Origin: Moniliella sp. 'wahieum'
Lineage: Eukaryota
DNA length: 64,000 bases
Reading direction: 5' to 3'
Assembly: GCA_003971905.1 (NCBI GenBank)
Contig: RSEE01000015.1
Location: 868,001-932,000 of the forward strand
Part shown: positions 1,981-54,318 of the stretch, piece by piece
Numbering within the stretch: position 1 is the stretch's first letter
How the letters are laid out: each line of letters starts with the position of its first letter
Notes under the pieces: generated by a model
Seen by the model: the letters and a program-made list of their open reading frames with translations, nothing else
Database searches by the model: none
What the model was told of the DNA's origin: nothing
Position numbers and translations under genes: made by a program

Positions 1981-2693
1981 TGGGCGACGAGCGTACCAGT
2001 GTATATTGCTTCTCGGCATCCTTTTTGGTTGATGAATTGTCGCATGTTGTCTTCATCGATCACTACAGTGGGCGCGCAGCTATCGCAGAGTACGGTTAGC
2101 AACAGGATAGATGGTGGGTGTGAACCGAAAGGCTTGTTAGGAGTGTGGATTTTTTGCTCACATCTAGTAGTATGTGAGGCAGAGTATCGGCGATTGCTAT
2201 GACAACGAGTGGTTTGGACGTTAGCCGTGCCCCCTTTTTGGTGGATGTCTCTCTCAACTCATATCTCAAGAGAGAAATAATACCTCCCCATGGCCCTCGC
2301 CTTTTGTGCTGACTACTCTCGCTTCATCTCTTCCCTATTCGACCTCGCATTCCGAGGAGAAAACGGTCTCGTTTTCGGCACGTACGATGCATATGATCAG
2401 TTCTGCACCCTAACAGCTTCGAAGACCATCCTTACACCTCACAAATTGCTTTGCCTGGCGATGCATCGATCCGGCGGGGAAGCGACACATGAGCTACCTT
2501 CTATACTAAAAAAGAGGTCGAGGGAAAAGTTGCCACTCCCTTTTGCTGCGGTGTGGTGCTTGTGCACGTTATAGAGGACAAACAGTGATGGTGCCCGGCA
2601 CCGAAACTGTTGAGCATGTGAAAGTGTGAACGTTGAACGTAACAAAAACGAAAGAGGGGACGTATATGCAAGACCATCCTTCGGTCACTCCTA

Positions 2694-4688
2694 TCATGAT
2701 CCGGAGGTCATGCCGTACATCCTCATGACACTGCAATGAGTGGGCAAGGGTATCATCAAAACCAGATCCAGCTCACGAAACGAATCCAACCCGTAGGTTT
2801 CGGCTCTAGCGGCTCCGGGTTCTGGCGGAACTGGGTAATCCACGGGTTGGATGGGGACTTCGCTGAGTGGGATCCACAGGGGGTGTTCCAGTGACAAACT
2901 TGTACCCCAACAAGACAAGCACATTGACGATTGGGCAGCAATAGGCTTGAGACTGAGATGAATGTCGGGCTCCTGGTTGCCTGTCACAAAGAACTCAAAA
3001 CCCCTGTCAAGAGACAGAAAGAGGATCCCAGCAGTCCAATCCAGGCCAGATACGGCTGGAACCAGCTTTGCCATGGCAGAGAGGAACGGGGAATCCCTTG
3101 GGCACGCATGGCGTAATACACACGCAGAAAAATGATGCATGTGACCACCCACTGGTACAAGGCAAGCGACGAGACGACACTCTGCAAGTACCCAAACACT
3201 TGCGTTGCACTTGAGCTCACCACCGTGTACCCCAAGGGGAAGCCCGCAGTGACAACCAGTACCGCCACCCAAGGCACACCCCACCGGTGGGTCTTGAGAA
3301 ACGCCTTGGGAGCGAATCCCATGTTGGCCAGGGCCATTGCGGAGCGGGATGCAGCAAGCGTACCTGCCGCACCGGAGCTATACGCAGATGTGATACAAAC
3401 TGCGTTGAGAATTGAGGGCAACACTTTGACACCTGCGTTGGAGGCAGCAATGACATAGGGGGATGCCGAGGCTGTACCGGACGAGTTGATAAGACGAGAA
3501 TCCGTGTAAGGGACCACCAAGCCGACACAGAAAACAAGCAAAATGTAAATCCCTCCTACCGGATAAATACGCGCTTGGCGGCACGAGGTAATGCCTGGCG
3601 TGGGTTGCGCGTTTCAGATGCCGCAGCGCAGATGGTTTCAATCCCTTGGTAACTGTACGCAGCGTTGGTGAGCGTGTACCAAAAGCCGAACCAGCGACCT
3701 CTGGCGCCCTTGAGCAAGTACTCAGCCATCGGGCCCGGATTGCGCCAGTACTGGAAACCGGTCATGTGGCCATGGGGACCGGCTCCAAGGTCCAAACAAA
3801 TGCAGAATATGACAAGACCAATAGCAGTCGTGAGTTTGACGATGGAGAAGGCGTACTCCGTCTCGCTGTAAAGACGCGTGAAGGTCAAATTGGTTGCAAG
3901 GAGAACGACGCCAAAGATGGTAATAAATACGGCCGGAGAGATGCTATCGTTCCAGTATTGGACCAACGCTGCTGCCGCAGTAAACTCTGCCGGAAGGCTG
4001 ACAAAGTTACCGTACAGCATGGCCCAACCACTAGCAAATGCCAGTCCCTTGGATACAAACATACCGCTGTGACGAACATAGAACCCGCTCACTGGTGCCA
4101 ACGTGGAAAGCTGGACAGGTTCAGGCTTTGCATCGCAGAATACAGATGGGAGAGGCTAACGTACCTCGGCTTGACAGAAGAGCATCGAACAGGCAAAGAC
4201 TCCCACAATCAAGTATCCTAGCAAAAGTGAAAGAGGTCCAGCAGTTGCCAAGGCCCTTCCCACACCAAGGAAAACACCCGTCCCGACAGAACCTGTCCCG
4301 GTTGTGGTTAATTTGATGAATGCCTGACGTCTACACTATGCCAAATAGAGAGGAAAGAGGACGTACCAGCCAAGGATATCATAGCAAGTTGGCGGGAGGT
4401 GAACGCTTCTCGAACATTATCTTGGTCAAAGAGCGTCTTGGCCAGCTCGGGATCCACGCCAGACAAATCGCCATAGCTCCGAACCTTGCCTGCGAATTGG
4501 TCCAACTTGTTCACTTTGACCTCTACCTTCTCGTCGAATAAGACTTTGTCATCCAAGTCGGCCTGTTCATCCGTCGCGGCTGCTGCGAGAGCGGCATGAG
4601 AGTCGTAGAGTGTGGTGGGGACATATCCGCCGTCGGGGAGCTGGGACTTGTCTGACGGACTCGCAGAGTGGTGGATGGACTCCGACAT
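2694..4688 (-). CDS. Amino-acid permease (APC superfamily, fungal YAT family); multi-exon, frameshifted
   Basis: N-terminus MSESIHH...RQLAMISLAG, then an intron (GTACGT at 4366) and GSVGTGVFLG...AGPLSLLLGY. Also 'GFQYWRNPGP', 'NAAYSYQGIE..AASETRNP..ALPRA.KRVFIR' and 'SASPYVIAASNAG'. Multiple hydrophobic TM segments. 3' end approximate. Confidence 0.92.
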
Positions 4689-5683
4689 GATGGTGGGGAC
4701 AAGAAGACAAGGCGACAGGAAACACCGACGAGAGTCTATTATTAGTGTGCATCTTTTTTCTTTGGGACTGGGTCATATTGATCGAGTGTGGTGGATGTGG
4801 AGGCGGCGCGGTATGGCCCGGTAAGACGATGTGGGGGGGGCTTGACTGTCACCTTGAGGCTTGTGAATGGGGGGAAAGCGATATAATTCCACATGGCCGT
4901 ACTGCGGCTGCGGTAAGTATGAATATTGGATGCAGTGCCGCTGCTAATGCGTGCATGTGCGAGCGTGTGCTTCCATCTATAGTTGGCTGAATCGCGCCAC
5001 GATTGGTCGCAGCGATGGGTGACGGATGGATGATGGGTGGATTTGACTTGGCCAGTGCTGGCAGCACATCCGGCACGGCGGGACTGTCCACACCGCAGTT
5101 CACTCGAAGCTTTTGACGCGAGCACGGGGGCAGAGCAAGGCAGGGCAGGGGCAGGGCAGAGCAGGGCAGAGCGCGCCGAAGAGAGACCCTATCTTATCTG
5201 CTCCACACTGTGGCAAGAGCACACGGCCAAAGCATTCGGGTGGGCAAATGCGCACGACCCATGCATGACCTTATGGGTGACCGAGCAGGCAGCCCTCTGC
5301 GTCCCTGTTTTCTTCCGAGAACAGCGCATTATGTATGTGTGTAGTCGCTCGAGCTTGCGCCTCCCGACGGAAGAGTGGGGGCATATGGGATGTGGATGAA
5401 CGTAACGCGTAATGAAGAGAAAGACACCTTGAGTTGTATGCAACGTGGTTCGTACCTCCATCCACAACTTCATCAAGATCACAATGTATGTTGTGTGACC
5501 ACACACGTGTGGGAGAAGGTTCCCACAGCATACAGAAGCAATAAGCCTACTACTACATACAAAAATACTAATAGTATAGGCACGGCTAATATGCGGCTCT
5601 ATACTTTTTGTACGTTGATATGCGAGTGTATCTTCCACTCTGTCCTTTCTCTTCACGCTCCCCTCTGCCCCTTTTTTTCTTCC

Positions 5684-5778
5684 TTGAAGCTTGAACGTTG
5701 AACGTTGAACAGCTTGAAGGCTTAAGCTCTGTTGAGACATGTGGCATCCAATAAGGACACCTCAGGCCTCAGGCCTCA
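5684..5778. repeat. 7-bp-period palindrome arrays: AAGCTT-g-AACGTT-g-AACGTT and AGGCCT-c-AGGCCT
   Basis: Read directly: AAGCTT 5687, AACGTT 5694 and 5701; AGGCCT 5764 and 5771. Confidence 0.9.
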
Positions 5779-7767: not shown

Positions 7768-7900
7768 TGATCGATGATCGATGATCACGTTGGCACATGC
7801 GACAGAGCGACACGGAGAGGGTTAAACGTGTTAAACGTTGAGCGTAGTGTTGAACGTTGGACGTGGTGACATGTGCCAAGCGCTGAGCGCTCGCTGAGCA
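7768..7900. repeat. Palindrome arrays ATCGAT-g-ATCGAT, AACGTT, ACATGT, AGCGCT-g-AGCGCT
   Basis: ATCGAT 7770 and 7777; AGCGCT 7879 and 7886. Confidence 0.85.
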
Positions 7901-9060
7901 GCGTTCTCTGAGGGACTTGGAGACGCCAGAGGTGCAGTCGCGGTGTGGTGAGCGGAAGGTTCTGAGGCTTGTGATTATAAGGTTTAGCGATTGGTTGTTG
8001 CATGTTGGTAGAGCTCAAAAGACCAGTCCGGCCAGTTGCGTCTGTTTATAGTTTCTGGGTCCGATTGAATACCGAGGGAGAGGTTACATGTTACAGAGGA
8101 AAAGGAAGAGCTGTGCCATATCCACCACACCGAGACGGGAACGACAACACCGCCGAGCGGGTTCCTGTCTACTGCGACTTGCGCCGATCCAGTGCCTTGA
8201 AGGTTTCTGGGTCCAGCAGAAGCCAGCAGCGCCAGCACCGAGCGGACTGCTCCTGTGGCTTGCCGGTTGTTGATCACATGTTACACTCGGCACAGCACGC
8301 GGGCAGCTTCCGCCTGCTTCCGATCCTATTTGCCGCTCTGGCCGATCTGACGCGTGGCGCGTGATGCGGGATGCAATGGTGGATGGTCGATGATCAATTA
8401 ATCGATGATGCATGTGACGCAGGGTACACGACGCATGGGGTCACAGAGGATCGGCAAAGAGGCACTAGGGGGCACTGCGGTTACATTGGGAGCCGAGGGC
8501 TGGACAGACTGCCTTAGTGCACGGACAGGCGGGGGCGGATCGGTGTAAAGCTTAAAGTAAAGAAGAGAGGTAGATCCGGTTTCAGTCGCCAGGCACTACG
8601 TCACTTGGTCACTAGCCGATGCATGATGCGTGATGCATGGTGGAGGAATAAGCTTGTGTATTGCAACGCCAGCAGAATAACAAAGCGGCTGTCGTGTGGG
8701 CGGGGCGCTCGGCATAGCTGGCGTTGCAGGCACACAAGCGTGCAACGGGAAGGGCACTTTTGGGCCATGGAAGGCTATGGAGCACGGCCCCGTTGCGCTT
8801 GGCCTGAGGGCCTGAGGTGACGGTGAGGCATCATTTAGTTCACTTGTCCTCCGATCCATCTTCATAGCTTCATCAACCATTCCAAGCCCTTACCGCATTA
8901 CCTCACCATCAAACATCTACTGCCTGCAGGCGTGTCGAAGAGAGACGGGGGCGCTGCGCAAGACCGAAGAAGGATGGGGAGTGTCTCATCAAGCACCAAA
9001 CAAGCAAGCGCCCAGCGCTGGCCATCGACCATCCATGGAGTAAAATATGAGCGGCTGAAC

Positions 9061-9330
9061 TCGATGGCATGATCGACATGATGATGCATGACATATGATG
9101 CGTGATCGACGAGATCATCGATCAATATGAAATGCTCCCATGGAGTGCACTGAACCTCTCATCGATTCAGTGTCACATGTCACGCGTCACATGTCACACG
9201 CCATTAGGATCTGCTGCTACATGCTATGGGGAGGTGTATGCGCAACGAGGCAGTGAGGTTGAACGTTGACGTTGAGGTTGAATGAACGTGAACGGAACTC
9301 AGCAAGTACTCATATACTCACTCAGTGCAC
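9061..9330. repeat. Palindrome arrays including ACATGT-c-ACGCGT-c-ACATGT
   Basis: ACATGT 9175, ACGCGT 9182, ACATGT 9189. Degenerate ATCGAT/ATGCAT run 9061-9125; AACGTT and AGTACT runs 9255-9325. Confidence 0.85.
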
Positions 9331-15470: not shown

Positions 15471-16663
15471 GTGCGGGGTGGGTTGGCTGGCACCGGGGAT
15501 GGCGTGGGCGCGCTTCCGGCAGAGGGCGTGGGTGCAGATGGAGGCGAGGCAGCGTCCATGGCGGTGGTGTGTGGTGGTGGTGGTGGTGGTGATGAGACGA
15601 TGGAAGACCAACGCAGTGGTGGCTCTGTGCGCATCGGAGCAGACGCGCACAGGACGCGTGCAACGCGTCCGATCCGATCCCAGCGCCCCCGCCTCGGCCC
15701 GCCCGGCTGCGCGCGCACGGCGCCATGTCTGTGCCGGGTCTTCTTACCTCAGCGCGCAGCGCCAGCGCCCCAGGCAAAAGCCTGTCCCAGCGCCTCACCC
15801 GCAACGCCCTTACGTAACACACCACCCCCCCAGCCATGGTCATCATCCCTGGGTGCCTCGTGGTGCATGGACAGCCATCACGCGCCACGTGGGAGGAAGA
15901 TTGAAATCGATGGAGACGATCGTCCTGCGTCCCAGCCTGTCTACAAAAACCTCCACCCAACAGCCATCGCTTTGGCGAATCCCTCCGGGAAACCTGTGCC
16001 CGCTGAGCGCCAGGGAAGACTGCGAGGTAGCCCTGCGCTCATCTCTTATTCACATACGAACAGACTATACTAACGGAGCGAGCGATGGGACGATTGATTT
16101 ATCGGGAGAATAAGACATGGAGCATTCGACATGGTAGGGCGAAAAGAAGCTAATGCTGGCTGAGATCCTCGCTTGACATATATACACCAGAGAGACCATA
16201 GGCTAGAACAGGAACGGTATTGACGTGATGTAATGCGCAAATGCTTGTGGACACAAGGCCTTCGCAGGACCATGGTACAGTTGACGGAGCTGCCATCCGC
16301 AGCGTTCCGAAATATTCAGTCTCCATCTTGACCGATTGAACCCCGCGTAAATGGTACCACCAATGAGAATGAAAGAAATACGTGAAAGCGTGTGCGGGCG
16401 ATGAAAATGGTACAGGAAATTCAAGCCGAGTTCGACTTCAGGAGGAAGTAGCCAACCGTAGAACGACCGGACAGAGTGTCTCCTACACTGGAGGCATCAA
16501 CTCGTCTGTTGGCGATTCGGGGTCCGACAGGCTGAAGTCGGACCAGGCCTCGACGGCACCAAGGAATGCATCCGCGAACCAGTGCGTGGCGTATTGGGCG
16601 CTGGAGGTGCGCTGTCATTTGGGAGGGGCGGGTGGGCAGCAGGTACAGGTTGCATCGCTGTGG

Positions 16664-16757
16664 GTAGTGGGTAGTGGTAGTGGTAGTGGTAGTGGTAGTG
16701 GTAGTGGTAGTGGTAGTGGTAGTGTAGTGGTAGTGGTGTAGTGGTAGTGGTAGTGGT
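16664..16757. repeat. (GTAGTG)n hexanucleotide microsatellite
   Basis: About 15 units read directly, with two interruptions. Confidence 0.95.
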
Positions 16758-18892
16758 GGGAGGAAAGCCAGGAAAGAGGGACGAAAGAGATTGGGGAGTA
16801 CTAAAAAATAATCGCATGCATTGGTACCCAATTGCTAATCAGGCTTGGGACGTTCCAGGACGTATACCCCAACGGCCAACAGAAAGCAACAATGGTGGCA
16901 AGTGATGCATGATGCATGATGGCTCGTGCATGTTTGGCCGCGTCCGCCACCCCGAGGGTTCCGATGTTTCAGTTTCGCTCACTGCCCGCCTGCCTATGCG
17001 GCCTTTGTGCGGCGGTAACTTTGGTCACAGATACACTGGTCTTTTGCGGTCGAGTGCGTCAAGCTCTTTGCGGGGCCCCAATAGCGCTTGAGTTGGGCAA
17101 CAACAGGGTCTCAGCCAGCCCGCCACCTTCATGCTAACAAGAGACGATTTCAGTTGGGGCAGAATTTGGAATGGCCCCAAGGAATCAAACTCCGTTGAGT
17201 TTGGGCGTTCTCACGATCTCATCGATCCCCACACACCACAGCGAGACCCTCTTCCAAGCTTCAAGTACCTCTAATAGTAGCAACAGTACACCGTGCATAG
17301 CAGCTGCCCAACCTCCCTTTTGGTCTCCAATGCTAATGACGCATGATGCCGATGCATGGTTGATGATGCATTCGCACAATGCGGTTGCTGGGTGCACCGC
17401 GGTTACAACACAGTATTCGACCATGCGCTCCCAACAGCCGATGAAGAACGTTTCCGATGCGCCCGCGCCACGGAGAGCGGGTCTCTCCTTAGCGCCTCAG
17501 CCTCTCATTCGATGATAGGCGCACACGTTGTTTTTGCGCCTTTTTAGCTCTACTCTTTCTGCAAACGGTATCAATGCCAGGAGCCATACCTTTTTTCCCC
17601 TGCTTGAACCTGTTGAGCCACATGGTTGCTCGTGGTTTGGGCCTCGAGAGGTCCCTTCAGTACTCAGTCCCTCCTCGGCGTTAGGAACTTCGATGGTCTT
17701 TCGCGTCTTTGTTCCGACGCAACCACAACTAATAACTACAGTGGAAACTGTGGCTGTGCTTGATGCAAGTCCCTGTGTAGGTGTCGTTGGTTGGCTTTGA
17801 CCGGTGACCATGCAACCGCCACCATTAGTTCCATCGCATCCCCCTCGAGGCCATCAACTATACTGTGGTGCCAGACTATGGTAGTGGCACCGGTTAGTAG
17901 CCCAAGCCCAGGTCCCCTTTCCCGGCGCACTCCTTCAACCTTTCTTATAGGGCAGCAATATTCTCTACTAGCGATGACGTAGCTCAGTGCTAATGCATGT
18001 TGGGACCCGCGGTCCCTTACATAGGCCAAGGCGCCTTATCGATATCACCCTTTGCCCTTTGCCCCTTATTCCGAAGCCTCCACGTGTGTAATACACTCAG
18101 GAGAACCATTGTCTCCTCTAGGGTGGCATAAGGCTTAGGCCTAACGAGACCACCATCGCGATTGCATTGCTCTACGTTTTCCAGAGGTTCATTGCCTAAC
18201 CCCTTGGTTCCTCCGGTCTTACATACAATGCACCAACTTCTTAGTATCAGGTCTTCTGCAGCTATCGGAAACAGAGGTTAGGGAAACTCTTTCCCCACAC
18301 ACACCAGGTCTTCTCTCGTATCTCTCTTATCTCCCCCTCCAGTCACTAGAGTCACTAGTCACTAGCCATGCGTCATGTTTCCTCTCCTCTTTCACCCACG
18401 CCTATCGCCTGAGGTAGCGAGTTGAGCGCGTTGAGCGAAGAGGTGGCGGTGTTAGCATGTTAGGGAAGAACAGAGGAATGCGCCAGCAGCGCCTACTACA
18501 CGAGCTTACAATTGGAACAAGGTGGAGGCGCCACGGATAGGGGGCGCGGCGCAGGCTATAAGCCTAAAACAAACCTCTATATAGAGAACAGTGCCACTTG
18601 TTATAACAGCCAGTGAAACAGTGTGATGGACGGATGTGACAAAAATGTGACGAATGTTTAACGAGGCGCAGGGCGAACACTGAGGTACTGCCTGGACAAC
18701 GTCGTGACCACGAACACATCACCCGAAGAAAACAGCCGATGGTCGGACACGGTCCAGGGACCATAATATGAGCAGCGCAAGTGGGAGCACTCTTCAGATA
18801 ACCGCGCAGATGTCGTGCTTGTCGAGCTAAGAAACCGGTCTGTACCTTTTCTTTCCTCCTTCCTTGCCGCCACCACCACCAACATCAACAAC

Positions 18893-25906: not shown

Positions 25907-26300
25907 TAACGTTCAACTGAGTCTCAGTATTGAGTACTGAGTCTCAGTACTGTTAGGATCCACTTTCCTGTGAGGTATGGGCTACACAATGTGTTGACGT
26001 GGTTGACATTCAACGGATATTCAACGTTCGTGTTGAATTCAACGTTCAGCGGCTCAGCTGAGCCTCAGCGCGCTCAGCGGAGTTCAACGGCACTGAACGG
26101 CCCAGTACTCAGTGAGTGTGCAGTAGTCCTTCGTACTCAGTACACTTCGTCTGAGTACACTCAGTCCAGTGAGTACTCAGTGTACTCAGTACACGTTCAA
26201 CCGCCTTTCACAGCAGGTGAGGCTGAGGCGCTGAGGCGCTAAGGCTGGTGAGGCCGGTGAGGCCTGAGGCAGTGCTAGTGAGGCTGAGGCCTGAGGCAGA
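25907..26300. repeat. Dense cluster of AACGTT / AGTACT / AGCGCT / AGGCCT palindrome arrays
   Basis: For example ctgagtctcagtattgagtactgagtctcagtactg, ttcaacgttc, gagtactcagtgtactcagtac, gtgaggcctgaggc. Confidence 0.85.
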
Positions 26301-26616
26301 CGGAAGTGTGCTGTAGGGCCCAAGGGTGCCGACGGGGAAGTCAGACGAGGAAAGTCATTTCTATTGTGGGGGAGGTCCTGGGTGATTCCGCAGATCGCTT
26401 CCGGCATATCGAGGCACAGAGGCTGTCTTGCCGACTAAAAAAAAGCGAGCGGATGTGACAGGCGCTGTGCCTGGGGCAGAGCGGGCAGAGCAGGGCAGGG
26501 CCAATGTAAGACCTGGCGCCGGGCGGGCATGCCAGCCAAGCGCGGCATGTGATGTTCATGGGTGATATATGATAGTTGGCGAGCGCGAGGGACAGTCGCC
26601 GGCGACGGCACGACAG

Positions 26617-27222
26617 TGAAGCTTGAAGGCCACACTTCAAGCTTCAAGCTCTTCAAGCTCATTTCTGAAGCGGTGCCTGTGGGGGGCCACAGCTGGGTTG
26701 CGCTTGGTGTGCCCATTAAAATACGTCGAGCCATCGTCTGCCCTCGACCATCGCCCTTTGTGTGAAGCCGCAGTGGCGTAGTGGCCACAGTAGCGCGGTT
26801 GATTCCTTGCAATACCCCTTCCTGGAGAGCAGAATTATTCTCCAGCCTCTGTAGCTCATATGCAATGCAATGCACCCTCAACACTGCCTGCTCTCTGATA
26901 TTTAACACTCTGTCCGTGGCAACACAGGGCAATCGGTGTGCACCCGACTTCTCAGGAACGCTGGACACCAACACATCCTCTGTCTGTTGCGATCCTCTGC
27001 CATTCACTTGCAGGATCAAGTGATCCACACTTGCCCTCTTCCCTGGCAACTGTGCTGTCTCATGCATCATGCATACTCTCTTGCCCCACCTGCATCATGC
27101 ATCACACGTCCAAATAACCACTCCGACGAAGTCACCACAAGTTGGCAGACCTTGAAGACAGGGACCAAGAAACGCGCGGATAGCCAGCCTGTAACATGTA
27201 TAACCTCAGGCCTCAGGCCTCA
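26617..27222. repeat. AAGCTT, ATGCAT and AGGCCT palindrome arrays upstream of the Per1-like gene
   Basis: tgaagcttgaag and ttcaagcttcaagct (26617-26660); catgcatcatgcat (about 27060-27104); AGGCCT 27208 and 27215. Confidence 0.8.
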
Positions 27223-30356: not shown

Positions 30357-30420
30357 GTGATCGATGATCGATGATCGATGATCGAATGAATCCAAGATCT
30401 AAAAGATCTAATCAATCAAC
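30357..30420. repeat. (ATCGAT-g)x3-4 plus an AGATCT pair in a divergent promoter
   Basis: ATCGAT at 30360, 30367 and 30374; agatctaaaagatct follows. Confidence 0.9.
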
Positions 30421-32898: not shown

Positions 32899-32955
32899 GT
32901 GAAACGTGAAACGTCATGCATGTCACGGTGCATGATGCATGATGCATGCGTGATG
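32899..32955. repeat. ATGCAT-g-ATGCAT array in the GPx promoter
   Basis: ATGCAT at 32935 and 32942, with flanking degenerate units. Confidence 0.85.
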
Positions 32956-37707: not shown

Positions 37708-37728
37708 CCCCCCCCCCCCCCCCCCCCC
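37708..37728. repeat. Poly-C21 tract (G21 on the minus strand)
   Basis: Read directly, about 450 bp upstream of the RhoGAP start. Confidence 0.9.
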
Positions 37729-38813
37729 TTGTTAGCCTGGGCATCTTCTTTCATCCGCAAATGTCGCCCCGCACCAAAAAAAGGCATCATCTGCCATCAT
37801 GCATCCTTCATAACATCATTCCACATCCCATACGCATCGAATCCATCCCCATATCTTGTGCTAACACACCGATCACAATTAACGATTTCATCGATAATCT
37901 CTGATTGATAAGTCGATCAGGTCGCGGTCAACGGTCAACACCAGTTTAAAGGTGTTTGAGAGGCGTTTCTCGCGTTTATGGCTTTCGTGCATCCGTAGTA
38001 GTTCATCACTATGGACACTGGAGTATTCCATTTGAGTATAGTAAGGAAGAGTTACAGAAGAGTACTCCATAATTATATTGCTAGAGAGCTTTGCACCACA
38101 ACGTAATCGAGATGGACCGCCGGGCCCTCTGCTATAACTTTTCACTTTCTTCTCCTTGAGAAGGCCGCATGTGGTAGATGAATCCCCCGGGTGGGGAATG
38201 CGACCCACTGAGATTGTTCTGGGGTAGTCTATTATACACAACATTATGACTACCATAAGAGAATCATCATATTATTGTTTCCTGTGAAGATGGGGGCTGC
38301 TGCTTTTTTGGCCACTATACGACACAATCACAAACGTTGGGATTTATTAATAGTCTGTGTATGGCCGTGGGTGTTATACGTCTGGCCTCTGCATCCTTCA
38401 ATTTTCCGATGAGTGCTGCTATGCAGATTCGCATTTCCAGTAGGGCCGCACATTGCTACCCTCTGTCGAGTGTGACATATGTGACTGGAGCGCGGCGCCG
38501 GTTGAGAGAGAAAGCACCGTATATATTTTGGGGCCATCGAGGGTGTCTGGTCATCACACGACTGAGGGATGGAGGGGCCGTAATTTATGAAGGAGAGTGA
38601 CTAGTGATGGCATCAATTATGCTGCGTATCATATGCATACCCACATGAACATCATTTCGACATCGACAAAACGACATGGAGAAATGAATCATCGCCCTAA
38701 CAAAGATACAATCTATTCTCTCTATTCCTCAGCGCCCTCACCTCGGTTTCACAACTATCGTGATGCGGGCGAAGGTTGTCCATAAAAGACGCGCGTGACT
38801 TGGTGATATAGCC

Positions 38814-40345
38814 GTAAGCGCGTAACGCGTAGGCTTTCATGCAGCTTCCAGCTTCCAGCTTGAAGCTTGAAGCTTTTAGCTCCTCAGGCCGGCGTCACGC
38901 GTCAGGCCTGACCTCAGGCCTCAGGCTGAGGTTTTAAGAAAGCTCCAATGCAGTGGAAAGCTTGGACGCATGATGCATGACGGATTTAAAGAGGCGAACA
39001 GGTGACATTATGGTAGCCGTGGCATCAGTAGAGTCACTAGTCACATGTGATGCGGTGTGGGTGAACCTGCGGTTGCTTCGGCCAGACGGGAAGCTGAAAA
39101 GGCGGTCAAGCTTCAAGCTTCAAGCTTCAAGCTTCTAGTGACCGGTGACCGGTCTGACCAGTGGGGCTAAGGAGTGGCTAGTGAGCTAGTGAGCTAGTGA
39201 GCTAGTAAGGCCTGAGGCCCGTGAGCGCCCTGAGCCTCAGGCCTCACTAGCACTGAGGTACTGAGGCCTCGGGGCTGAGGCTATGAGGACAATTAACGTT
39301 TAGCAATTGCTGAGCTGTGGCCTGTGACATGTGACACGCGTGACATATCGGTGATGTGATGTGAATTGTTAGACACTGCTCCACACTGGGCCCTGGCACG
39401 GCCAATGCAGGCCGCAGCACAGGGGCAGTGGAGGGGTGTGGCCCCAAGACGAAGCTACACGGTGCGACCATGTTATATCCGGGCGTTTTTGTAAAACCTT
39501 TGTAGACACAAACGCCTCGCACTCCCTGCTCTGACTGATGGGGTGCTGCCTGGTGCTGCCCATCCGCCTGAGGTTCAGGCCTCAGGCTGAACGGCTGAAC
39601 GTTGAACGTTGTTGAACTTCAACGCTGCAGTTCAACGGTTCAGCGCTGAGCCGCTGAACGTTATCCGAGGGGACAGTCTCGCGTTGGGCCCGCTGGGAGT
39701 GGTTGAATGTTAAGTGCGTTGAGAGTTGTTGGCTGCTCTTTTTACTGTTGGCCTTGTGCACTACACATGACGCGCTGCTTCTGGGGGGTTGGTCTGTTCT
39801 GGCCCAGCCACATGCACAACGATAATGCACTTCCTGCCGTTTTTGCTTTGGGTTGGAAAAGCTGTGGAAGCTAGTTGAAACGTGTCTTGTCGACGGTTAG
39901 CTTACTATTGCTATACCGAAACGATGCCCACTGACAGAGCGTGTATTAATGTGCGCGAGGTGCCCACTGGCATCGCAGAAGTCTCCTCGAGTCTCTCTGT
40001 CTGTCCATTGCTATTCTCGCCTTTTCCTCTCAAATCTCAGTTTTTAATAGTGAAGTCACTCCAGTCACTAGTCACTCAGTCTCTGAGTTCTGAGTTCTGA
40101 GTACTCATCGATCATCACTCCCCGAACCCACCCCCTGCCATTAACCATTCGCCACCCACTCTGAAGCGGGACTCGGCGCTGAGCCTCAGCGCTGAGGTTC
40201 TGTAGTGCTCAACAGCCTGAGACCTCTGGGCGCCTGTGAACGTCCCGGCCTGAGCGCCTGAGCGTTGAACCGTTGAACGCCGAACACCCTTTAACAAGCT
40301 TAAAGCTTCAGGCTTCAAGCTTCACGCTTCAAGCTTCACGCCTTC
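38814..40345. repeat. Largest cluster of A-N4-T palindrome arrays (at least 9 different cores)
   Basis: ACGCGT about 38825; AAGCTT 38863 and 38870; AGGCCT; ATGCAT; ACTAGT-c-ACATGT at 39036; AAGCTT x4 at 39108-39134; ACCGGT 39141 and 39148; (agctagtg)x3; AACGTT 39598 and 39605; AGCGCT; AGTACT-c-ATCGAT about 40100; AAGCTT run 40297-40340. Confidence 0.9.
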
Positions 40346-40881
40346 GGCCTCACTATAGTCACTGGTTACTAGCCTAAGGCTCAACTGGAGTTCCCCCCGG
40401 ACATATACACCCGGTGTTTGCCACAACGACATAGTTGCGTGTCAGTTTGCTTGGGTTCAGGCCCAGTACAACCCGCCGCCACCATCACTCTGCTCATATA
40501 CCCCCGGGCAGTCACCGGCGTGCTGTACCCCCCCCTCTTGTCCCGCCTCCTTTCCGTCCCGTCGGCCTACTCTGCCTTCCTCTGACACAGTCTCCCAATT
40601 CCCTCATTGTCTCGCTCTCCAGCCTCCTCGTTATTGGCTCACCCACGGCTGGTCCGTTGCTGCTCGCCTCCTTTCCTCCTCCATCCCTCTCAAGACGACG
40701 ACGTGCCCATTCAACGCTCGACCTCTCGTGCTGTCTTCATTCTTACGGTGCACCGCGCCTCGCTCTCAGCTCTCAACTTTCAGCTCTTAATTCTTCCACC
40801 TGCCTCATTGCGTTCTCGCTGGGCGGCTTCCATTTTCCATGGACCCCCTTGCCCTTCGCATCGCGCGCCTCAGAGACGGAG

Positions 40882-42774: not shown

Positions 42775-44644
42775 TCCTTCACTGGATCAGGTCGAGATTG
42801 CCTTGGCCTCTCTCATCGTACCAATGGTGCACTGGAGCAGGGAGTCACTGCCCCTCTGCCTGCATCTGCCTTTTGGGGCAGCGCTCCTGGCAAACACTGG
42901 GCGTATAACATATTCCCCCCTGCAATGGAGGCCGTCAAAAGCCCCCTTCTTTCTATTGGGTCTGTCTTTCTATATTGGTCGATTTCCGCATTTCGTCATC
43001 CTTGCATCTCTCGTACCCCTCTCCACCTTCCACGTCGCCCTATTGCATTGGCACTTGACTCCTGCTCGGGGGCGACTATTCAACCCACACAGGCTGGCAC
43101 CACACCTTCGTCTATGTCCCCGGTTGGACATATACGAGCGCCATATGCTCTTCACGATGCTTGGGATCTGTGCCTGTTGCTCCTTCCCCCCCTGTCCCCC
43201 GGTAACATCCTGTCACCTTTTTTCCGGTTCCATGTTCAACGTTCAACGACATCAACAACCGTTTTCTTTTTCTTTTAACGTTTCCTTCATCGCTACTTCA
43301 AGATTCCCATCCTTCCTGTTTCCCCCTCCCCCTCAATCAGAATACAAGAAAGTAAGTAACAGCTCTTCACATTCCTTCGAGCTTCACATTGCTTCACGTT
43401 GCTTGCCTTTACTTTCTTTGTCATGATCACTGTTTTCAGTTGATCTCTCTTTCCTCTGCACTTTTTTGCTGAGGATAACAATCATTACTTTCTCACGATG
43501 ATCGGACTACATGTGGAAGTAGCGGATCGCGATGGACCTTTCTGTTCTACTTTGTATCGTCCTCCCTGTCATAAAGGCGTTGGTTGGACTATCATGGTTG
43601 GGCGACCGTGGCCCAGGTGGCAATTACATATCTCGCAGCATGCTCGGAATGCTACGCAGGCCCCCTTTTCTCTCATAGTATCTTCCACAATCTGCAAGTT
43701 GGAAAGGCCCACTGCCCTAATTCTGAGTGTGAGACTACTGCGTAGGATTGGTGAGACGCGGTAAAATGCAATCGTATCTTATTCTTCCGCTTCACAGCAG
43801 CAGTGCGTGGGTGGACAAATTGAAACGCCCCCTCGTCACATGCAGTCTCTCTTTTCGCTTTTGGCTTGCCACATGTCACATCCTACAACAGTTGGAACCA
43901 GTCTGTCCCCCGTCTCACGCGTAGGCAGATCTATATATATCTTCCTTACATATCAGAGTGCCTGGTGTCAGTTGCGAGTACTCCTTTGTACATATCACAG
44001 TCAGGGGCTAATAAGACGAAGGGAGACCATAATCAAGACGAGGTCTGTCGGGAGATGTAATAGTAGCAATCCTTTGTGGGAAAACTATGAGTGCAATAGC
44101 AGAGGACTGCATAATGGAGCACCGCAGAAGATCAGGGAAAGAGAGGCAACGCACATGTGAGACAGAGACTTTTTGGAAATGGGAGCGATATCATATATCA
44201 CAAACTATGACACCAATTACTATACCCCTCTTTTTCGTGCCAAGGTGCCCCGTATGTTATAACTTTGTCCAAGAAGGGCTGCACTTTCGATCCCACCCCC
44301 CGGCTGCAAATGGAACGTCGACAAGGTGTATTATTCTCACCTAGTAGATGCGCGCGTACCGTATAAACTGTTGGGCTTATATCCGACCGGGCGAAACGAT
44401 ATCCCATCAAGCGTTGAAATCAAACGCAGAGAGGGAGTGGTATTAGACCCGTTTTGAAGCTTCTGATGTATACCAACAAGTTGTTTCTCTCTATAAATAG
44501 CCGTGTAGTTTTCAATGGATTGATTATTGAATTACTCATCGGGAAAGAGGGGTATATATGTACGCGACGGATCGATGGGGGAGATGATGGGGACCTCACA
44601 AAAGAGGCCCCTGTGAGGAAGAGAGTCGGGTGACGACGGTGTGC

Positions 44645-44870
44645 GTTGACGACGTTCAAGTTGAACTTCAAGCTTCAAGCTTCAAGCTTGAACGTTGAAC
44701 GTTGACGGTCATACGCTGAGGGCCATGCTGTCGGCGTTTCGTCAGTACAATACGCCCGTGATCGACATAGCGCACGACGCTTCGATATGCTCTTTGGGCG
44801 CTAAGGGATATAATGCCTAAGGGGTCTAAGGCCTAAGGGGACTATATAATAAGGCCTAAGGCCTATTAAG
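44645..44870. repeat. Array AAGCTT-c-AAGCTT-c-AAGCTT-g-AACGTT-g-AACGTT, plus AGGCCT-a-AGGCCT
   Basis: Units at 44670, 44677, 44684, 44691 and 44698; AGGCCT at 44852 and 44859. Confidence 0.92.
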
Positions 44871-45499: not shown

Positions 45500-47700
45500 G
45501 TAGTACACGGGAAAGGAAATAAGGGCGCGTGCGGCCGAAGCACCCCTCAGCAGATCGATTTCACCCGCTCCCATTTAAAACAACATTAACCGCGGCTTAA
45601 CCACATAGTACTATGGGTGCGCGCCTCTCACCTCGCATTATGGCCGACGAGCAAGGGCAACTTACTGATTATCATCCCTTCCTTTGTTACGGAACGAAGA
45701 AGATGAGGCCGGCGGTGTTTTCAATCCATAGAGTTAAGAGCTCCATAATGCTTCCGTGCTGGAAGATGGTATGGTATTCCGACTGCTCCAACTGCTATGT
45801 ATTCTGTGAGAAGGTGATGTCGATGAACCGCATCGAAAGACTCACATCAGTTAGGGGTTTCCAGTGATATAAGCATATTGTTCGCCGTCTTGGAGGCATA
45901 CTACCGACTTTTGCGTGGTCCGCGTCATCCTGATCAAGGGGGAAAACAACGGATATTGAGTATGGCCCTCACAGGTACTTGACGGTTCCCTTTTGTGATT
46001 ACGCTTGCTGATGCAACGTTCGAAGCCGCTCCTTTTCCCTGCGTTCCACAGGCGTTTGTGCGACGGTTTCCTTTTTTACGACACCGCGTCCGCCGATACC
46101 CAAAACAATTGTGAGACGACCTGTGGGTGAATCAACACACCGATCATCCCAGCTGTTAGGCTGAAGTCTACAGACGAAGCGTTCTCCCCCCCACACAAGT
46201 TCCATGCCTGAACACCGTGCCGGTCTTTGAGCCATAAAAAGAGGCCACTTTGGTCAAATTCTCCTGTAGTTTATAGGGCGAAATTCGCAAACCAAGGCTT
46301 GCGCCTCCTTCTCGCGGATACTCTATGAGATATAATCCCTCTGCAATGGTACGTTGTACTGTAGAAGCGATGTATTATACATGTCAGAGGTTGTAGGCAG
46401 AGACTATATTCTGGGGAGGGTACCGGTCCCAATCCAATATAGCGCTTCATGAGTGGTACCAACGCTTGTTTACGCAGTAAATATACAGGTCCCCAGAACT
46501 CGGCTGACGGCATCATCCTGATCATGCACCGAGGAAAGGATGCGTTGATGGCTCTCAGTATACTGTGCAGTTTTGGTATCCTACGTTCCGTCAGTTGGAA
46601 CTGTATCGGAAGAATATGGGCCGCCATAGCTTTTTCCCTTAATAGAACTAGCCTGTATACTCCCGGCGATTGAGCTTCCCATGTAACAGTCGGGACTAGA
46701 CGAGGGAGACCAAGGTCCTGTCAGAGACGGAGGGGATGGCAAGAAAGTGGAGAGGAAACGGAAAAAAGGCATAGGGCAGGGAACAGAAAAAAAAAAGGAA
46801 GGAATGAACAAGTGGTACACGGGATGCAGAAGTGGAAATTGGAGCGAGCTTGGTCATTCGATGAGACCCATGCTCCATCTTGTCAATAGGTACGGTATCA
46901 TACTTCTCTCCCTTTTCATTGCCTCTTCTGCTCGCCACTAGAGAAAAAATAAAATGTGTAACCACAGTCTGTTTTCGGATTCATCTTCTGTGTGGATTTT
47001 TGTCAACCACCCCGTATATATTAACCCCCGCAAGATGAACGGTTAGGTTTAGACGTAGCGTTCCCCCTGTCCCAGCCTTCTTAAGTCTGCCAATGAAATG
47101 GACGTTGTATAGGAGTAAGGCGGGATCTATTCCAACACAAGATTAAGGTCCTCCTGAGACTTTCCTCAAAAATTGGGGGCGAGTTTCGACTGCTTACCAT
47201 ACGGCGCCGTTGCTGATACGAAAGTTGAAGGTCTCTTTTTATATTGGGCGCGGTTGCGGTTTCTTATACAAAAACTCCCTTGGAACGCCGGGAGAAGGAG
47301 CTGCTTCGGCTGCTTGAACAAGCAGAATACGACAAGAACGCCATGTACCAAAGACGCACTCAAGAGCCGTTCTTCCTCCTGGTTTTGACGACGCGAGGAT
47401 ACTACGGCACCAAGACAGCGGGCAAGTTGTTTGCGCATTGGGAGGATTTGGCTACTAAGTCTCAGTGGAAATGGTTCCTCGCTCGGATGTCAACCACGTT
47501 TTCATCCGTGTCCACACGCGCTTCCTAGGGTACGGGACCGGATGGCGAGAAACGGAGGGGTGATATCCTGGCGTTAACCCTGGTTCCTTAACCTTGGTGG
47601 CGCTTCCAAGTAACCCCCGCAAGATGAACGGTTAGGTTTAGAAGTAGCGTTCCCCCTGTCCCTCTGTCTTAAGCTCGTCTCTGTCAATGAAATGGACGCG
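45500..47700 (+). mobile_element. Decayed non-LTR retrotransposon relic(s), 3' RLE end, with a duplicated ~85-bp segment
   Basis: ORF 47244-47528 'EQAEYDKNAMY..EPFFLLVLTTRG..LFAHW..WKWFLARMS' resembles the C-terminus of RLE LINEs (K..Y...F.P.V....G). The region looks lower in GC than the genes and has no intact ORF. Left boundary uncertain. Confidence 0.45.
47022..47698 (+). repeat. Direct repeat pair 47022-47104 and 47611-47698
   Basis: First 52 nt match at 51/52 (taacccccgcaagatgaacggttaggtttaga[c/a]gtagcgttccccctgtccc). Similarity continues with indels to caatgaaatggacg. Confidence 0.95.
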
Positions 47701-50110: not shown

Positions 50111-50858
50111 AGACGATGCGAGGAAGGCAGGGTGGGTGGGACATCACGTGACGTGATACTCAATATGCACCGAAGATGCACTTTACCCTGAACAAAGTCA
50201 CTCCACTCTGGGTTGGGGGCCGGTAGGATGAGACACGGCGTGCCGTTTTGCTCCACTCGGCCAATCCCGGGACGCAACAGGAGCAAGAGCAACAGACGGT
50301 GGGTAGCATGTGCGGGAGAGAGAGGGGGCAGGCACAGTGCGCTTGCACCAAAGTATACACACAGTGAGAGCGGGGCATCAAGCTATACGTCAGCACCGAC
50401 AGGAAACGTAGGAAACGTTGCTTGATTGTGAGCGCGCGCGAACCGTTGATCCCGGCGCTGATGATCATCTCGACCGTTATTGCGGCCTAGGGCCCCAAGC
50501 GCCCAGGGCCCAGGAGAGGGGATTGGTATTGAGCGCGCGCATTGAGCGTGGGCTGAGCGCAGCTCCCGCTGAGCGCGAGCGCAGTTTGAGCCGTCTGGAC
50601 TGCCCGTCCTCTTCGCATATTCATCTGCCCAGCCTCATCACCCGGCGGTCCCGAGGGTCCTCCTCTGAGACGCAGGCTCTCCACAGGCACAGCGTGCTTC
50701 AGTTGGACCCACTCGGGTCCCTCATATACAAACCCCACATCCGCCTGCTTCCTTGTTGCCTGAAGTGGGGTCTCTTGAACACACCCGCCACGCTTCCGCC
50801 CCTCTCCTGTTTTCCTTTGCGCTGCCACCACCACTGTTGCTCCTTCACCTGACACTCT

Positions 50859-53621
50859 ATGGAACAACCCTCCCTTAGTGCCTGGTCGCGACCGCCAGCG
50901 AGAAAGCTCCCTTCGGCATACGAGCGCACCCATACCGCCTGCGCCGCGGCAGATCTGCCGCTCCCCGGTCTGCCTCAATGTGTGCTCCTTGCCGGCCCAG
51001 GGGCAGCAACAAGCACCGCACACGTACTACATGCTCTCGGGGGCAGCCCCCTTGCACCCCTGATATCTCCTCAAATGCCCACCATGTATGGTTTTCACCG
51101 CTTGCCGACAACACCATTTTGGTCGGAAGATGCAACTGCTCGTCCTCTGTTGGTTCGTTTGCAGCCATCTGAAGATACGTCCATGGCTCCGCGTCTGTCC
51201 TTACTGGCGTCGACTCGATGGAGCCAGACCAAGTGTGGGCGCGCATCAAGGCGGAGCGCTCGCATCCTCCACAGGAAGGCGACCCTCTAGCTGCCTCACC
51301 TTATGCGCCCCCGACTTGCCTCATCTGCAGCTGGTCGAGCTCCCTGCCCTAATTGTTCCGGACGAGCAGGCCTCTTCTCTCCAGCTACGACGGTCGCGTC
51401 CGGCAACGTTGGAAGCAAGGTGTCTCCTGAAGATCTGGTGGCGCAAGCTCGTCGTTCTTTGGCCTTGTCGTACGCTTCGGAGCCGGATGCAGTTCTTTGC
51501 GTTGTTTTATCCCCATGGGAGCGGGCCGAGACTAGTCCCGCCGTCCAGTTGGCTCTCGAAGTGGACCCAAAGGGGGACAGAACGGTTGGAGTGATCCCCT
51601 TTGCCATGTCGTCTGCAGGGAGATACAACCTTCCGTTCCTGGGGCGCCCCAGTTCCCCCTTTAAGAACGGTACCATCTACCTCCCCATCGCGCAAGCGGG
51701 TGGGTTCGAATCTAGGGCGCTCCCCGGTCTGGCTACGTGGCAACAGCATTCTGTCTCCTTTTCTTCTTCTTGGCTGGGCAGAGGTGCGGCGGGCTGCGTT
51801 GGTGGATGCAGTGGCTCGGACTTTGCTGAACCGCTTTCAATGTCGGGTCCCAGCATTGACAGCGCGATTGAGCGCGTTGGTAGCTCAGACGCAGCACCAA
51901 CTTGCGCGGGATGCCCCCTCCCCCGTCTCTGCCTGTTGACACGTTTCGACGGCCGCGCACGCAGGATGAAGAAGAGAGGACACTGGTTGGATCAGACTGG
52001 GACAACGCTAAGGTGGGGAAAGCGTCCCCACCCCATTCACCTTCTTTATCCATTGCCCCTTCCCTTACTCCTTCCGGGGCAACTGCCTCTGTTGTAGGCC
52101 CCACAAGGGTGAGTGCCTCATCCCCAATCGGATCAGAGGCAGCTCAACTGGTGCTCTCTCTCACAACCCAGTTTGCTTCGGATGTGGTGGCCTGCATTGA
52201 GGGGGAAGGCGGGGCCAGGATCTATCGTACTTTTGTCGACTCTTTCCATCAAGCTCTTCTTGATACCATTCCTTCCCCTCATCTTCAGCAGTGCGACGAG
52301 GGGCTGCCTCCTGGCAACCCCGACCCTGAGTGGGACGAAGCGTCGGGGCTATCCACCCGGACCATTCGTACCGCCTTGCGTAACGCTGCCGGTCCAAGAC
52401 CGGGGCTCTTTGTCCCAGACCAAGCATTCCAATTGCTCGTCAAGCCACAACTGCATCGCCTCCACTTCCCGGCTCAACAATGTGTGGAAAGTGTGTTTGA
52501 GGAATTGGTTCGCATTGCTCACGTCTCGGCTCGACCCGTACGTCATTCCGCTATACTACCCCCGCACTGAACAAAAAAACGTACTAACCCCCGTGTCCCA
52601 GGAGCTTGCTCGCTTTCCTCATCTACGCACCGCGCTAACGGATCGCGTTGACCTAATGCTGACAGAACGACGAGGGCCTACAGCCGAGTACATTAGGAAC
52701 CTCGTCGACCTCCATTCCGCATATATCAAGGTTGACCATCCTGCTTTCGTTCGCGCGAGAGAAGCGATTTTTCATCCTCCTTTGCCCCACCTGTTAAGCC
52801 CGCGTCCAAACCCAACCTTACCCACACCACAAACCGCAGCCCGACCATGACGCCCCCTCGCCCTTCTGTACAGGAGGAAGAAGGCCACCCTCCCCTTTCC
52901 CGTGCCCAAACCGTGCCTACGATCCCCGTGTCCCCTCTGATCGGTGCCTTCCGATGGAGGCGAACGCCCACACCCACTCCGCCTGCCAAGCCGACGCCTA
53001 CCAAGGCACGAACACGGTCCAGCACCCAGAGTCTCTCCTCTCCTCCCATCCCTCCTGTGTCTGGTCATCACCGCGGGGCGACAGTGGCGCCGTGCCGACG
53101 GTGATTCTTCCGCCTCCAGCTGGGTCCGCTCCGCAGCTGCTCCCGCCCCCCCCACCGTCCGAAGGATTTTTCTCTCGCTTCTTGGGGGGCAGCGAGGACC
53201 GGCATCGGCCGTCCTCGGTGCAGGACGAAGCACGCTCGTCCTCCCCTGGCCCTGCTGCACCCCAAGGTTCAATCGAGTCGGAAAGCGTGCCAGCCCAAGC
53301 GGAGAAGGTGCAGCCTAGTCGAAGGAAGAGTTGGTGCGCGCGTTAGTCTTGGCTTACCTAGCCCTGGCACGGGAGGTGGTGGAGGACACGGTGCCCAAGG
53401 CCATCATGCACCTTCTTGTCCACGCGGCCACAGAGGCGATGGAGACGCGGTTGGTGCAGGCGCTGTACTGTGCTTCGCCAGAGCGAGAGGTGCCGCTCCT
53501 CCATCCGGCCTCGTTGGGCCGTTTGCTGGAGGAGGACGAAGCGGCAGTACAGCGCGCATCGAGGCGCGTGCCCGGCTGGAGACCTACCAGCACGCGCTCC
53601 AGCAGATTGCGCGTGAACTAA
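50859..53621 (+). CDS. Dnm1/Drp1-like dynamin-related protein with degenerate GTPase motifs
   Basis: Stalk 'GGARIY..F...IRTALRNAAGPRPGLFVPDQAFQLLVKPQ..CVESVFEEL' and 'ELARFPHL..ERRGPT..AYI.VDHP.F'. GED 'LVRALVLAY..EVVEDTVPKAIMHLLV..RLVQALY'. G-domain scaffold 'LPQ', 'TARPL', 'EVDPKGDRTVGV'. Intron 52538-52601. Confidence 0.88.
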
Positions 53622-54318
53622 TATGGGGGGCAGGAGGCTGATAAGATTACGAGATCTAAGATCTAAGGTCTGAGAGGGCTGTGGCAGCGATCCATACTTT
53701 TTCTCATCGTGGCAGGATGGTCTTGAGGCCTTTTTTGGCAAGGGAGCGATTCGATCACGTACACGAAATCACAGGCATCACAGCGTGTCCCATACGTGCA
53801 TTTGAAATTTGATGCCAATTTGAGGGTGGCCGACGTGGCTGTGTGACATGTGATGGATGATGGATGCGTGATGGCGGCTCCGTGCTGGCACTCGGATGCG
53901 TGGCGGAGCTCCATGGACGGGACCGTTCTGCTGGCCCGCAGTTCCTGATCGTCTGATCTGCGTGGGATGCGCCGGCGGCACGTGAGCGTGGGCGGTGCGG
54001 TGTGCTGGCGCGGTGCGAGTGTTGAATGTTGGACTTACGCGAGTGCGCGGGCGGCGTGTGTGTGTGCTGCGCATCTTCGGACTCAGTACGCAGTCTCAGT
54101 ACTCAGCCCGAGTTGCGCGCTGCGCCGAGCACGAGTACGCGAAGTGCTTGCTCAGGCGGAGCCCCAGGCGTGTCTACTCCGTGGCAGCTATGCGCCCCCC
54201 CTGCCCTTCCAGCCTGCGCACGCTGAGCCCCCGCCGCCCACGCCCGCTGGCGCCCCCTCCGCTTTGGCGCTGCGCTGCCGCTCTCTTCCTTGCCTCCACC
54301 CCCCCTTCTCTGTTCGCC

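Follow-up and report, generated by a model that had tools for sequence, protein, structure and literature searches.

T-N-A-framed palindrome arrays in fungal intergenic DNA: possible scars of a recurrent, self-templated 7-nt insertion

Large non-coding blocks in a 64,000-nt stretch of the fungal contig RSEE01000015.1 (Moniliella sp. 'wahieum', assembly GCA_003971905.1, positions 868,001 to 932,000; hereafter the window, with positions counted from its first letter) carry short arrays in which hexamer palindromes of the form A-N4-T follow one another with one base between them, so that the units repeat every 7 nt and meet in the triplet T-N-A. The arrays raise the question of what process would write a single rule in many different sequences. 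Our tentative answer, to which we give a little under an even chance, is that they are the accumulated scars of a recurrent local mutation that templates itself, lengthening T-N-A sites by 7 nt in the large non-coding regions beside genes.

The pattern is far outside chance. Pairs of each of the 64 hexamer palindromes were counted in the window at spacers of 0–12 nt, and 100 order-3 Markov simulations served as background. All 22 identical pairs with a one-base spacer are of the A-N4-T type (AAGCTT 7; AACGTT, AGGCCT, ATCGAT and ATGCAT 3 each; ACCGGT, AGATCT and AGCGCT 1 each) and none begins with C, G or T, while the simulations gave a mean of 0.05 A-type pairs and a maximum of 1. A further 11 pairs stand at a spacer of 8, the two-unit distance. 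Any two A-N4-T palindromes are joined by one base 30 times (0.60 expected), and even lone A-N4-T palindromes number 319 as opposed to 208 ± 16. An earlier note on this DNA had claimed that only A-initial palindromes form one-base-spaced arrays and had named a census against a Markov background as the check; that census bears the claim out, and every array from the note that we checked was found at its position.

The outer triplets are as restricted as the palindromes. TSA-N4-TSA (S, C or G) occurs 135 times with a palindromic N4 in 75 (8.4 expected), the same S standing on both sides in 66 of these, and TWA-N4-TWA (W, A or T) occurs 17 times with a palindromic N4 in 10 (1.1 expected), whereas the other six self-complementary outer triplets are at chance, as with A[CG]T (0/46). 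In lag-7 autocorrelation TCA and TGA top all 64 trinucleotides, with lag 9 raised too, and perfect runs of at least 14 nt number 42 for period 7 as opposed to 9 for period 8. Counting each T-N-A / palindromic N4 / T-N-A as a link gives 93 links in 64 kb, with the same N on both sides in 75 and with 14 inner palindromes in use, namely all 12 GC-containing N4 plus the AT-only TATA (3) and AATT (2). The earlier statement that all 12 GC-containing cores occur thus stands for links; as identical full pairs ACATGT, ACGCGT, ACTAGT and AGTACT are missing, being found only in mixed chains or in partial forms of 12–13 nt. Its description of the junctions as TCA or TGA and sometimes TAA also needs widening, as the spacer base can be A or T.

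The repeated unit is not the hexamer, as the earlier note had it. The minimal form is 12 nt long and reads [T-N-A-x-y][y'x'][T-N-A-x-y] or the mirror image, so that a 5-mer is copied directly and its final 2 nt also in reverse complement. Over both strands, 5-mers of the form T.A.. are repeated with a 2-nt spacer 105 times, and in 85 of these the spacer is the reverse complement of the last 2 nt (6.6 expected); none of the other 15 combinations of first and third base departs from chance in the same 5+2 test, and plain 5-bp duplications show no excess in the window. Period-9 variants number 17, of which 9 read TNAxy-y'x'-y'x'-TNAxy, and period-8 variants number 12; both are minor, and only the 2-nt form is in large excess. 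When in-phase neighbours have unlike cores, they differ in one half-site only in 6 of 7 cases.

The ends of the arrays follow the same frame. A total of 63 period-7 runs obey the rule over 12 nt or more. Turned to show G or A in the spacer, 35 of them begin at T or y' and 35 finish at y or A (p ~ 7e-6), and of the 12-nt runs 14/19 fall in the two predicted phases, TNAxy-y'x'-TNAxy and y'x'TNA-xy-y'x'TNA, out of seven possible (p = 6e-5). Run lengths show two peaks, one of 38 runs at 12–13 nt and one of 5 at 19 nt, that is, at 7k+5. Among isolated links with the same N, 40/48 carry the repeat on by 2 nt or more to one side or both (chance 0.12); the extension is one-sided in 32/48, with the opposite side like random flank (0 matches in 26, 1 in 6). 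On these results a minimal event lengthens one TNAxy site by 7 nt, of which five are a direct copy and two an inverted complement, and all inserted information is local.

Most of this sits between genes. By a crude coding mask (a codon-usage score from 15 long open reading frames (ORFs), most with a Pfam match, which is not annotation and does not delimit introns), 84/93 links lie within 14 non-coding blocks, none shorter than 600 nt and together 19,022 nt long, and a single link lies in coding-like sequence, in agreement with the earlier observation that coding regions lack arrays. Per kb, the blocks hold 9.45 quasi-palindromic 7-mers centred on TNA and the remaining sequence 2.18, whereas those centred on ANT, CNG or GNC show no such difference, and almost every one of the most frequent 7-mers in the blocks is a rotation of an array unit. 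Perfect matches to the 12-nt grammar make up 3.7% of the blocks, a share that rises to 6.6% if one mismatch is allowed, compared with 0% and 0.18% in simulated sequence. Judged by the strand of the bordering coding-like stretches, which fixes orientation approximately, the richest blocks sit between genes that point away from each other or upstream of a gene, and the regions we read show array after array in all states of decay. The arrays and clusters catalogued, with the richest block among them, are as follows.

2627..2640, TGAACGT x2, AACGTT core
5683..5710, in-phase chain of an AAGCTT link and then an AACGTT array (20-nt run)
5760..5778, 19-nt array (5+7+7), AGGCCT core
7768..7786, 19-nt array TGATC-GA-TGATC-GA-TGATC, ATCGAT core
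7879..7891, AGCGCT-G-AGCGCT
8618..8639, degenerate ATGCAT array
9171..9198, mixed in-phase chain ACATGT / ACGCGT / ACATGT, spacer C
9258..9269, 12-nt minimal form, AACGTT core
16903..16921, 19-nt array of TGATG-CA x2 plus TGATG, ATGCAT core
18350..18365, 16-nt array, ACTAGT core; a period-9 variant begins at 18341
25931..25942, 12-nt minimal form TGAGT-AC-TGAGT, AGTACT core, within a decayed cluster at 25916-25952
25990..26300, run of decayed clusters with the words TTCAACG, CTCAGC, TACTCAGT and TGAGGC; intact AGGCCT arrays at 26258-26297
26617..26660, AAGCTT forms of 12 and 16 nt with a period-9 variant
27060..27104, two arrays, ATGCAT core
27204..27222, 19-nt array, AGGCCT core
30358..30385, TGATCGA x4, 28 nt
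32929..32948, 20-nt array, ATGCAT core
37774..40435, richest non-coding block, with a LIM/C1/RhoGAP gene on the minus strand to one side and a plus-strand gene to the other; 14.4% follows the 12-nt grammar if one mismatch is allowed
38819..38926, chain of about 100 nt that holds the 7-nt phase across ACGCGT, (C/A)AGCTT, ACGCGT and AGGCCT units
39032..39044, ACTAGT link and then an in-phase ACATGT link
39106..39153, TCAAGCT x4.3 (30 nt) and then TGACCGG x2.3
39208..39246, AGGCCT forms with period-8 and period-9 variants
39575..39611, AGGCCT form and AACGTT array
40063..40116, ACTAGT and ATCGAT forms flanking the rule-breaking TCTGAGT x3 (40082-40102; centre CTGAG, without a palindromic N4)
40296..40338, degenerate AAGCTT array, period 7/14
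43234..43248, array, AACGTT core, not in any large block
44666..44705, AAGCTT x3 (spacer C) joined in phase to AACGTT x2 (spacer G)
44826..44865, AGGCCT arrays with spacer A (TAA junctions)
53652..53667, AGATCT array, spacer A
54095..54106, 12-nt AGTACT form

The TCTGAGT x3 that breaks the rule may be a mutated unit later spread by slippage.

Each event turns ..u2u1-T-N-A-x-y.. into ..u2u1-TNAxy-y'x'-TNAxy.. or into the mirror image. The simplest chemistry to give exactly this grammar would be one lesion-and-repair cycle. The cycle would begin with a double-strand break whose 7-nt stagger is centred on N, which places T at -1 and A at +1 as a symmetric target, as for a dimeric enzyme. Both flank ends would be capped by hairpins and each nicked 2 nt 3' of its tip, leaving short palindromic additions (P-nucleotides), and the opened hairpins would carry two facing 4-nt 3' overhangs, xyy'x' and u1'u2'u2u1. 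Both strands would be ligatable without trimming or fill-in, and replication would then fix one form or its mirror; worked by hand, top-strand ligation would give u2u1TNAxy-y'x'-TNAxy and bottom-strand ligation u2u1TNA-u1'u2'-u2u1TNAxy, both 7 nt longer than the target and together exactly the two forms observed. At a site already scarred the two overhangs would be the same palindrome and pair perfectly, with exactly 7 nt added in each further cycle, and the arrays would grow because the product recreates the target with cohesive ends. Slippage and point mutation would afterwards lengthen, shorten and erode the arrays, and access to open promoter DNA would account for where they lie.

The same scheme could account for the period-9 form TNAxy-y'x'-y'x'-TNAxy, as P-nucleotides joined to an untrimmed quasi-palindromic copy, and for the in-phase neighbours that differ in one half-site. 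The earlier note had offered a fold-back or template-switch process at T[CG]A. In essence this holds, since adjoining bases within one site template the palindromic half; the unit, though, is a different one, and because the palindrome has zero loop beside a retained direct duplication, a hairpin-capped break fits better than polymerase fold-back.

Other routes to the grammar were tried and set aside. Fold-back copying of the whole 5-mer predicts a complementary spacer base, yet the same base is found in 75/93 links. A Tc1-type footprint (a 3-bp TNA duplication plus 2 nt per transposon end) does not fit the 40/48 isolated links that repeat at least 2 extra bases on one side, and 14 cores would need 14 different termini. 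A 4+3 model with three P-nucleotides did not reproduce the grammar by hand and predicts starts at N, while 23 starts were observed at T and 2 at N. Neither a 5-bp duplication with symmetric hairpin opening nor hairpins of the odd-centred hAT type reproduced it when worked by hand, and the perfect palindromes in the arrays are even-centred hexamers, unlike odd-centred hAT footprints. More generally, the hairpin scheme with staggers of 3, 5 or 8 nt, or with hAT-type chemistry, does not give the grammar by hand; it is the 7-nt frame that places T and A symmetrically.

What enzyme could do this? By analogy, the closest activity appears to be the excision step of hairpin-forming cut-and-paste transposons with 7-bp target duplications, or equally a nuclease derived from such a transposase; a transposase-derived nuclease or some other enzyme could be at work just as well as a transposon. 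Excision of hAT, Transib and MULE elements runs via flank hairpins in the account given in the cited part of PMC5499845, and Ac/Ds footprints in Candida, yeast and plants consist of deletions together with inserted palindromic P-nucleotides, with a few predominant products, in the cited part of PMC5873905. The arrays share with such footprints (Ac/Ds, hAT, Transib/RAG, MULE), and with the P-nucleotides of V(D)J joining, a kept target duplication and a short flank-templated palindromic addition, and this combination is what the 85/105 repeated 5-mers and the one-sided extensions display; according to the same parts of PMC5873905 and PMC5499845, predominant products exist, and such footprints are known in fungi. 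The arrays differ in being almost uniform, with exactly 2 nt added, even-centred and with a net gain of 7 nt, and also in being iterated at one site and very dense with no element in 64 kb.

For Basidiomycota, PMC12730594 describes two groups of transposons that duplicate 7 bp of target, hAT7 in the rusts (Pucciniales) and Kyakuja, of the KDZ type, in Laccaria, and Table 3 of PMC7473861 lists Kyakuja and other KDZ families in Agaricus. The stagger of 7 in Kyakuja and hAT7 equals the array period and the phylum matches (PMC12730594), and the likeness consists of those two features. No such element lies in the window, and a link is suggested rather than observed. Abr1 of Agaricus also has a 7-bp duplication. 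That a dedicated enzyme of this lineage, perhaps a highly active element akin to Kyakuja or else a transposase since domesticated, repeatedly cuts promoter T-S-A with a 7-nt stagger and hairpin ends and so writes self-perpetuating arrays is a possibility that we regard as doubtful. If it were true, it would generate new intergenic DNA by positive feedback, making up some 4–7% of the large non-coding blocks overall and as much as 14% in a single block, and the arrays might secondarily act as landing pads or regulatory spacers.

Several results weigh against excision scars and against a transposon as their source. No transposase domain was found in a domain scan of 90 ORFs, and a search of the window for terminal inverted repeat (TIR) elements with duplications of 3, 5, 7, 8 or 9 bp gave none that is credible; candidates with 7–9-bp duplications are array-to-array matches or chance-level singles (58726, 8615, 14693, 26219), and the 341 and 28 candidates with 3- and 5-bp duplications were judged chance-level as lists, not one by one. 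Elements of the CA..TG kind between identical NNTNANN 7-mers number 16 in the window (~17 expected), a search there for TNA-flanked elements returned 5 matches, all of them the arrays themselves, and comparison of the window with itself gives a single small dispersed repeat (89 bp) unrelated to the arrays. A density of 93 links per 64 kb, or 3.7–6.6% of the large blocks, is very high for scars with no resident element. Non-palindromic 7-bp duplications at TNA show no excess, the 39 cases with the same S being like neighbouring lags. The usual 8-bp hAT target, nTnnnnAn, would centre A-n-T and not T-n-A. Hairpin-repair footprints are heterogeneous, with 28 types among 128 events in Candida, and canonical hAT footprint palindromes are odd-centred, on the complement of the element-bordering base, both according to the cited part of PMC5873905; the junctions here are near-uniform, unlike a footprint spectrum of deletions and variable P length. 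Additionally, the ancestral state TNAxy is one we infer by parsimony, and confinement to large intergenic blocks could instead reflect selection.

The strongest competitor to recurrent self-templated insertion is that the arrays are ordinary heptanucleotide microsatellites, in which self-complementary units form hairpins in slipped strands and expand preferentially, T-N-A being the best-tolerated hairpin tip; we consider it unlikely, though not negligibly so. The arrays are indeed tandem and short, with variable copy number that falls roughly geometrically (~53 runs of 12–18 nt, 8 of 19–24 and 2 of 28–30). They consist of head-to-tail direct repeats with 42 perfect period-7 runs, an over-representation against the 9 of period 8, and keep the same spacer base in 75/93 links. 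Each array, being quasi-palindromic, could fold with TNA as its triloop, and some gain and loss of units by slippage is likely whatever the origin. If slippage moved in whole units, however, runs would measure 14, 21 and 28 nt and fall in random phases, whereas the lengths seen are 12–13 and 19 nt, or 7k+5, and the phases are fixed; the minimal form repeats just 5 bases and arises beside random flank. Hairpin stability also gives no ground for an absolute T..A, with C.G and G.C outer pairs at 0 as hexamer pairs and at chance otherwise. The stable triloops known in DNA are of the GNA type. The origin of the palindrome itself is left unaccounted for, and one rule holds over at least 14 unit sequences. 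The earlier note had argued that slippage fails to explain a shared rule, and the 7k+5 peaks, in place of 7k, support that argument.

A second competitor, which we hold to be improbable, is that the arrays are selected cis-regulatory elements, either homotypic clusters of sites for a DNA-binding protein that is dimeric or polymerises, or promoter structures that form cruciforms or exclude nucleosomes. With 84/93 links in large non-coding blocks, several between divergently oriented coding-like stretches, and with words of one type clustering locally, the placement suits this explanation, and TGA/TCA are half-sites of bZIP-type factors. A binding-site code is nevertheless disfavoured because a protein cannot require complementarity without base identity, and the 14 inner palindromes are used with no strong preference, only T and A being fixed and no base-specific core conserved. 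Phase-locked ends with a one-sided 2-nt extension would be meaningless for binding, and the arrays are present at all stages of decay. Moreover, because the spacer base is constant along an array, the sites are direct repeats and not inverted as for a dimer. The earlier proposal of a factor polymerising on T[CG]A-N4-T[CG]A has no support, and the use of any of 14 kinds of inner palindrome, the fixed start and end phases and the presence of all states of decay speak against it.

It is highly improbable that the arrays are a dispersed mobile micro-element, whether a family like the MITEs (miniature transposable elements with inverted repeats) or an ultra-short invasive element as in fungal mitochondria. 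The same words do recur across many intergenic regions, and precedents exist in the ultra-short repeats of Podospora mitochondrial DNA and the palindromic (A)n/(T)n elements of Fusarium mitochondrial DNA, the latter argued to be mobile, in the cited parts of PMC7272585, PMC1864894 and PMC7218506. These sources, in the same parts, tie the Fusarium elements to nearby indels and the MUSE repeats of Podospora to recombination junctions. The arrays resemble both, as there described, in being very short non-coding repeats, some of them palindromic; but those are mitochondrial and either a fixed undecamer or A/T runs, whereas the arrays here are locally templated, 7-periodic and set among intron-containing genes typical of nuclear DNA. 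Self-comparison of the window shows no shared flanks and no MITE-like TIR or target-site duplication beyond the arrays, and all inserted information comes from the local 5-mer, with nothing moved between sites.

An assembly or polishing artefact is the least probable explanation, and scarcely credible, since the pattern has a base-specific grammar and is confined to non-coding blocks, and since independently assembled metagenome contigs (L079, L047 and L087) share the grammar with at least two core types adjoining.

Those contigs belong to a set of 120 that was fetched by an AAGCTT-array pattern, and a phase test on the set is biased by that pattern and was weighed weakly. L079 carries AGATCT, ACCGGT and AAGCTT cores, L047 carries AAGCTT and then an in-phase ATCGAT, and L087 carries AAGCTT and then AGGCCT, plus ACGCGT; in L027 and L090 a second core type lies nearby at period 8 or with spacers of 1–2 nt. 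With the seeded AAGCTT arrays removed, the 37 mid-GC contigs of the set show no enrichment (34 vs 32.9 expected). Few contigs of the set share the grammar, and because the set as a whole is without enrichment, the dense form of the arrays is a property of particular genomes rather than of genomes in general. Comparison of L027 with L041 (99.1% alike over 6 kb) shows no length difference at arrays. In L079 (1-20020) we also observed at least 4 copies of an ORF with AAA_11/UvrD-like helicase domains, 5.4–6.3 kb apart, which are probably a tandemly repeated segment. Some arrays of this contig recur at a spacing of about 5.5–5.6 kb and are probably copies made by that segment duplication.

Full-text literature searches, by words and by motif strings, gave no description of the arrays or of a rule limited to T.A 5-mers with a 2-nt inverted filler; the mitochondrial elements of Podospora and Fusarium came nearest, and they are unlike the arrays in sequence, compartment and structure. 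A transposon-type footprint and the birth of a microsatellite are known phenomena; the exact T.A grammar is not previously described in the literature searched. If recurrent 7-nt insertion holds, one cycle of lesion and repair can be read from bare sequence, with a stagger of 7, a target of NN-T-S-A-NN and a hairpin opening offset by 2 nt, and its scars can build up to a measurable share of promoter DNA. It would also make it possible to detect that a transposase or nuclease was once active in genomes that have lost the element or hold few copies of it, and would supply a birth mechanism for a whole class of microsatellites and a testable source of rapid promoter-length variation in basidiomycetes. 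With that said, the rule itself (T.A 5-mers only, always with a 2-nt inverted filler) is absent from the literature searched even if another enzyme is responsible, and the grammar is unusually exact and directly testable.

The genes around the arrays are those of a eukaryote, and of a fungus. In an ORF and Pfam domain scan of the window several genes are split over frames, as expected with introns, and stop-to-stop ORFs carry amino-acid permease, Per1, KilA-N (APSES) adjoining ankyrin repeats, DUF1989, glutathione peroxidase, LIM with C1 and RhoGAP, GRAB, dynamin, GH79 C-terminal and DUF2235 domains. The closest named protein matches are basidiomycete at 36–50% identity (Gymnopus 50%, Calocera 47%, Hymenochaetales 36–40%), and on these similarities we describe the affinity of the window as basidiomycete-like and no more closely.

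Other repeats were noted along the way. A run of 21 C at 37708-37728 lies at the edge of the richest array block, near the 5' end of the LIM/C1/RhoGAP gene, and (GGTAGT) x15.5 at 16663-16757, the longest simple repeat of the window, sits on the margin of the coding-like sequence of the KilA-N/ankyrin gene. Repeats of the GGGCA / GGGCAGAGCA type occur at 5127-5169 and 26474-26501, in two separate non-coding blocks that border minus- and plus-strand coding-like stretches, and may be a shared promoter motif unconnected with the T-N-A arrays. The sole dispersed repeat in the window is a pair of direct copies of about 85 bp (47022-47104 and 47611-47698), 86.5% alike with about 500 bp between them, which could be the remnant of a small element or a local duplication. 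The surrounding stretch, at 44–48 kb, has a lower GC content of 0.48–0.50, and a Pfam scan of the four long ORFs at 43.7–48.6 kb gave no match. Lastly, a 24-nt unit is repeated 5.3 times with 76% matches at 59451-59577, partly within a coding-like stretch, and from its position is probably a repeat inside a protein.

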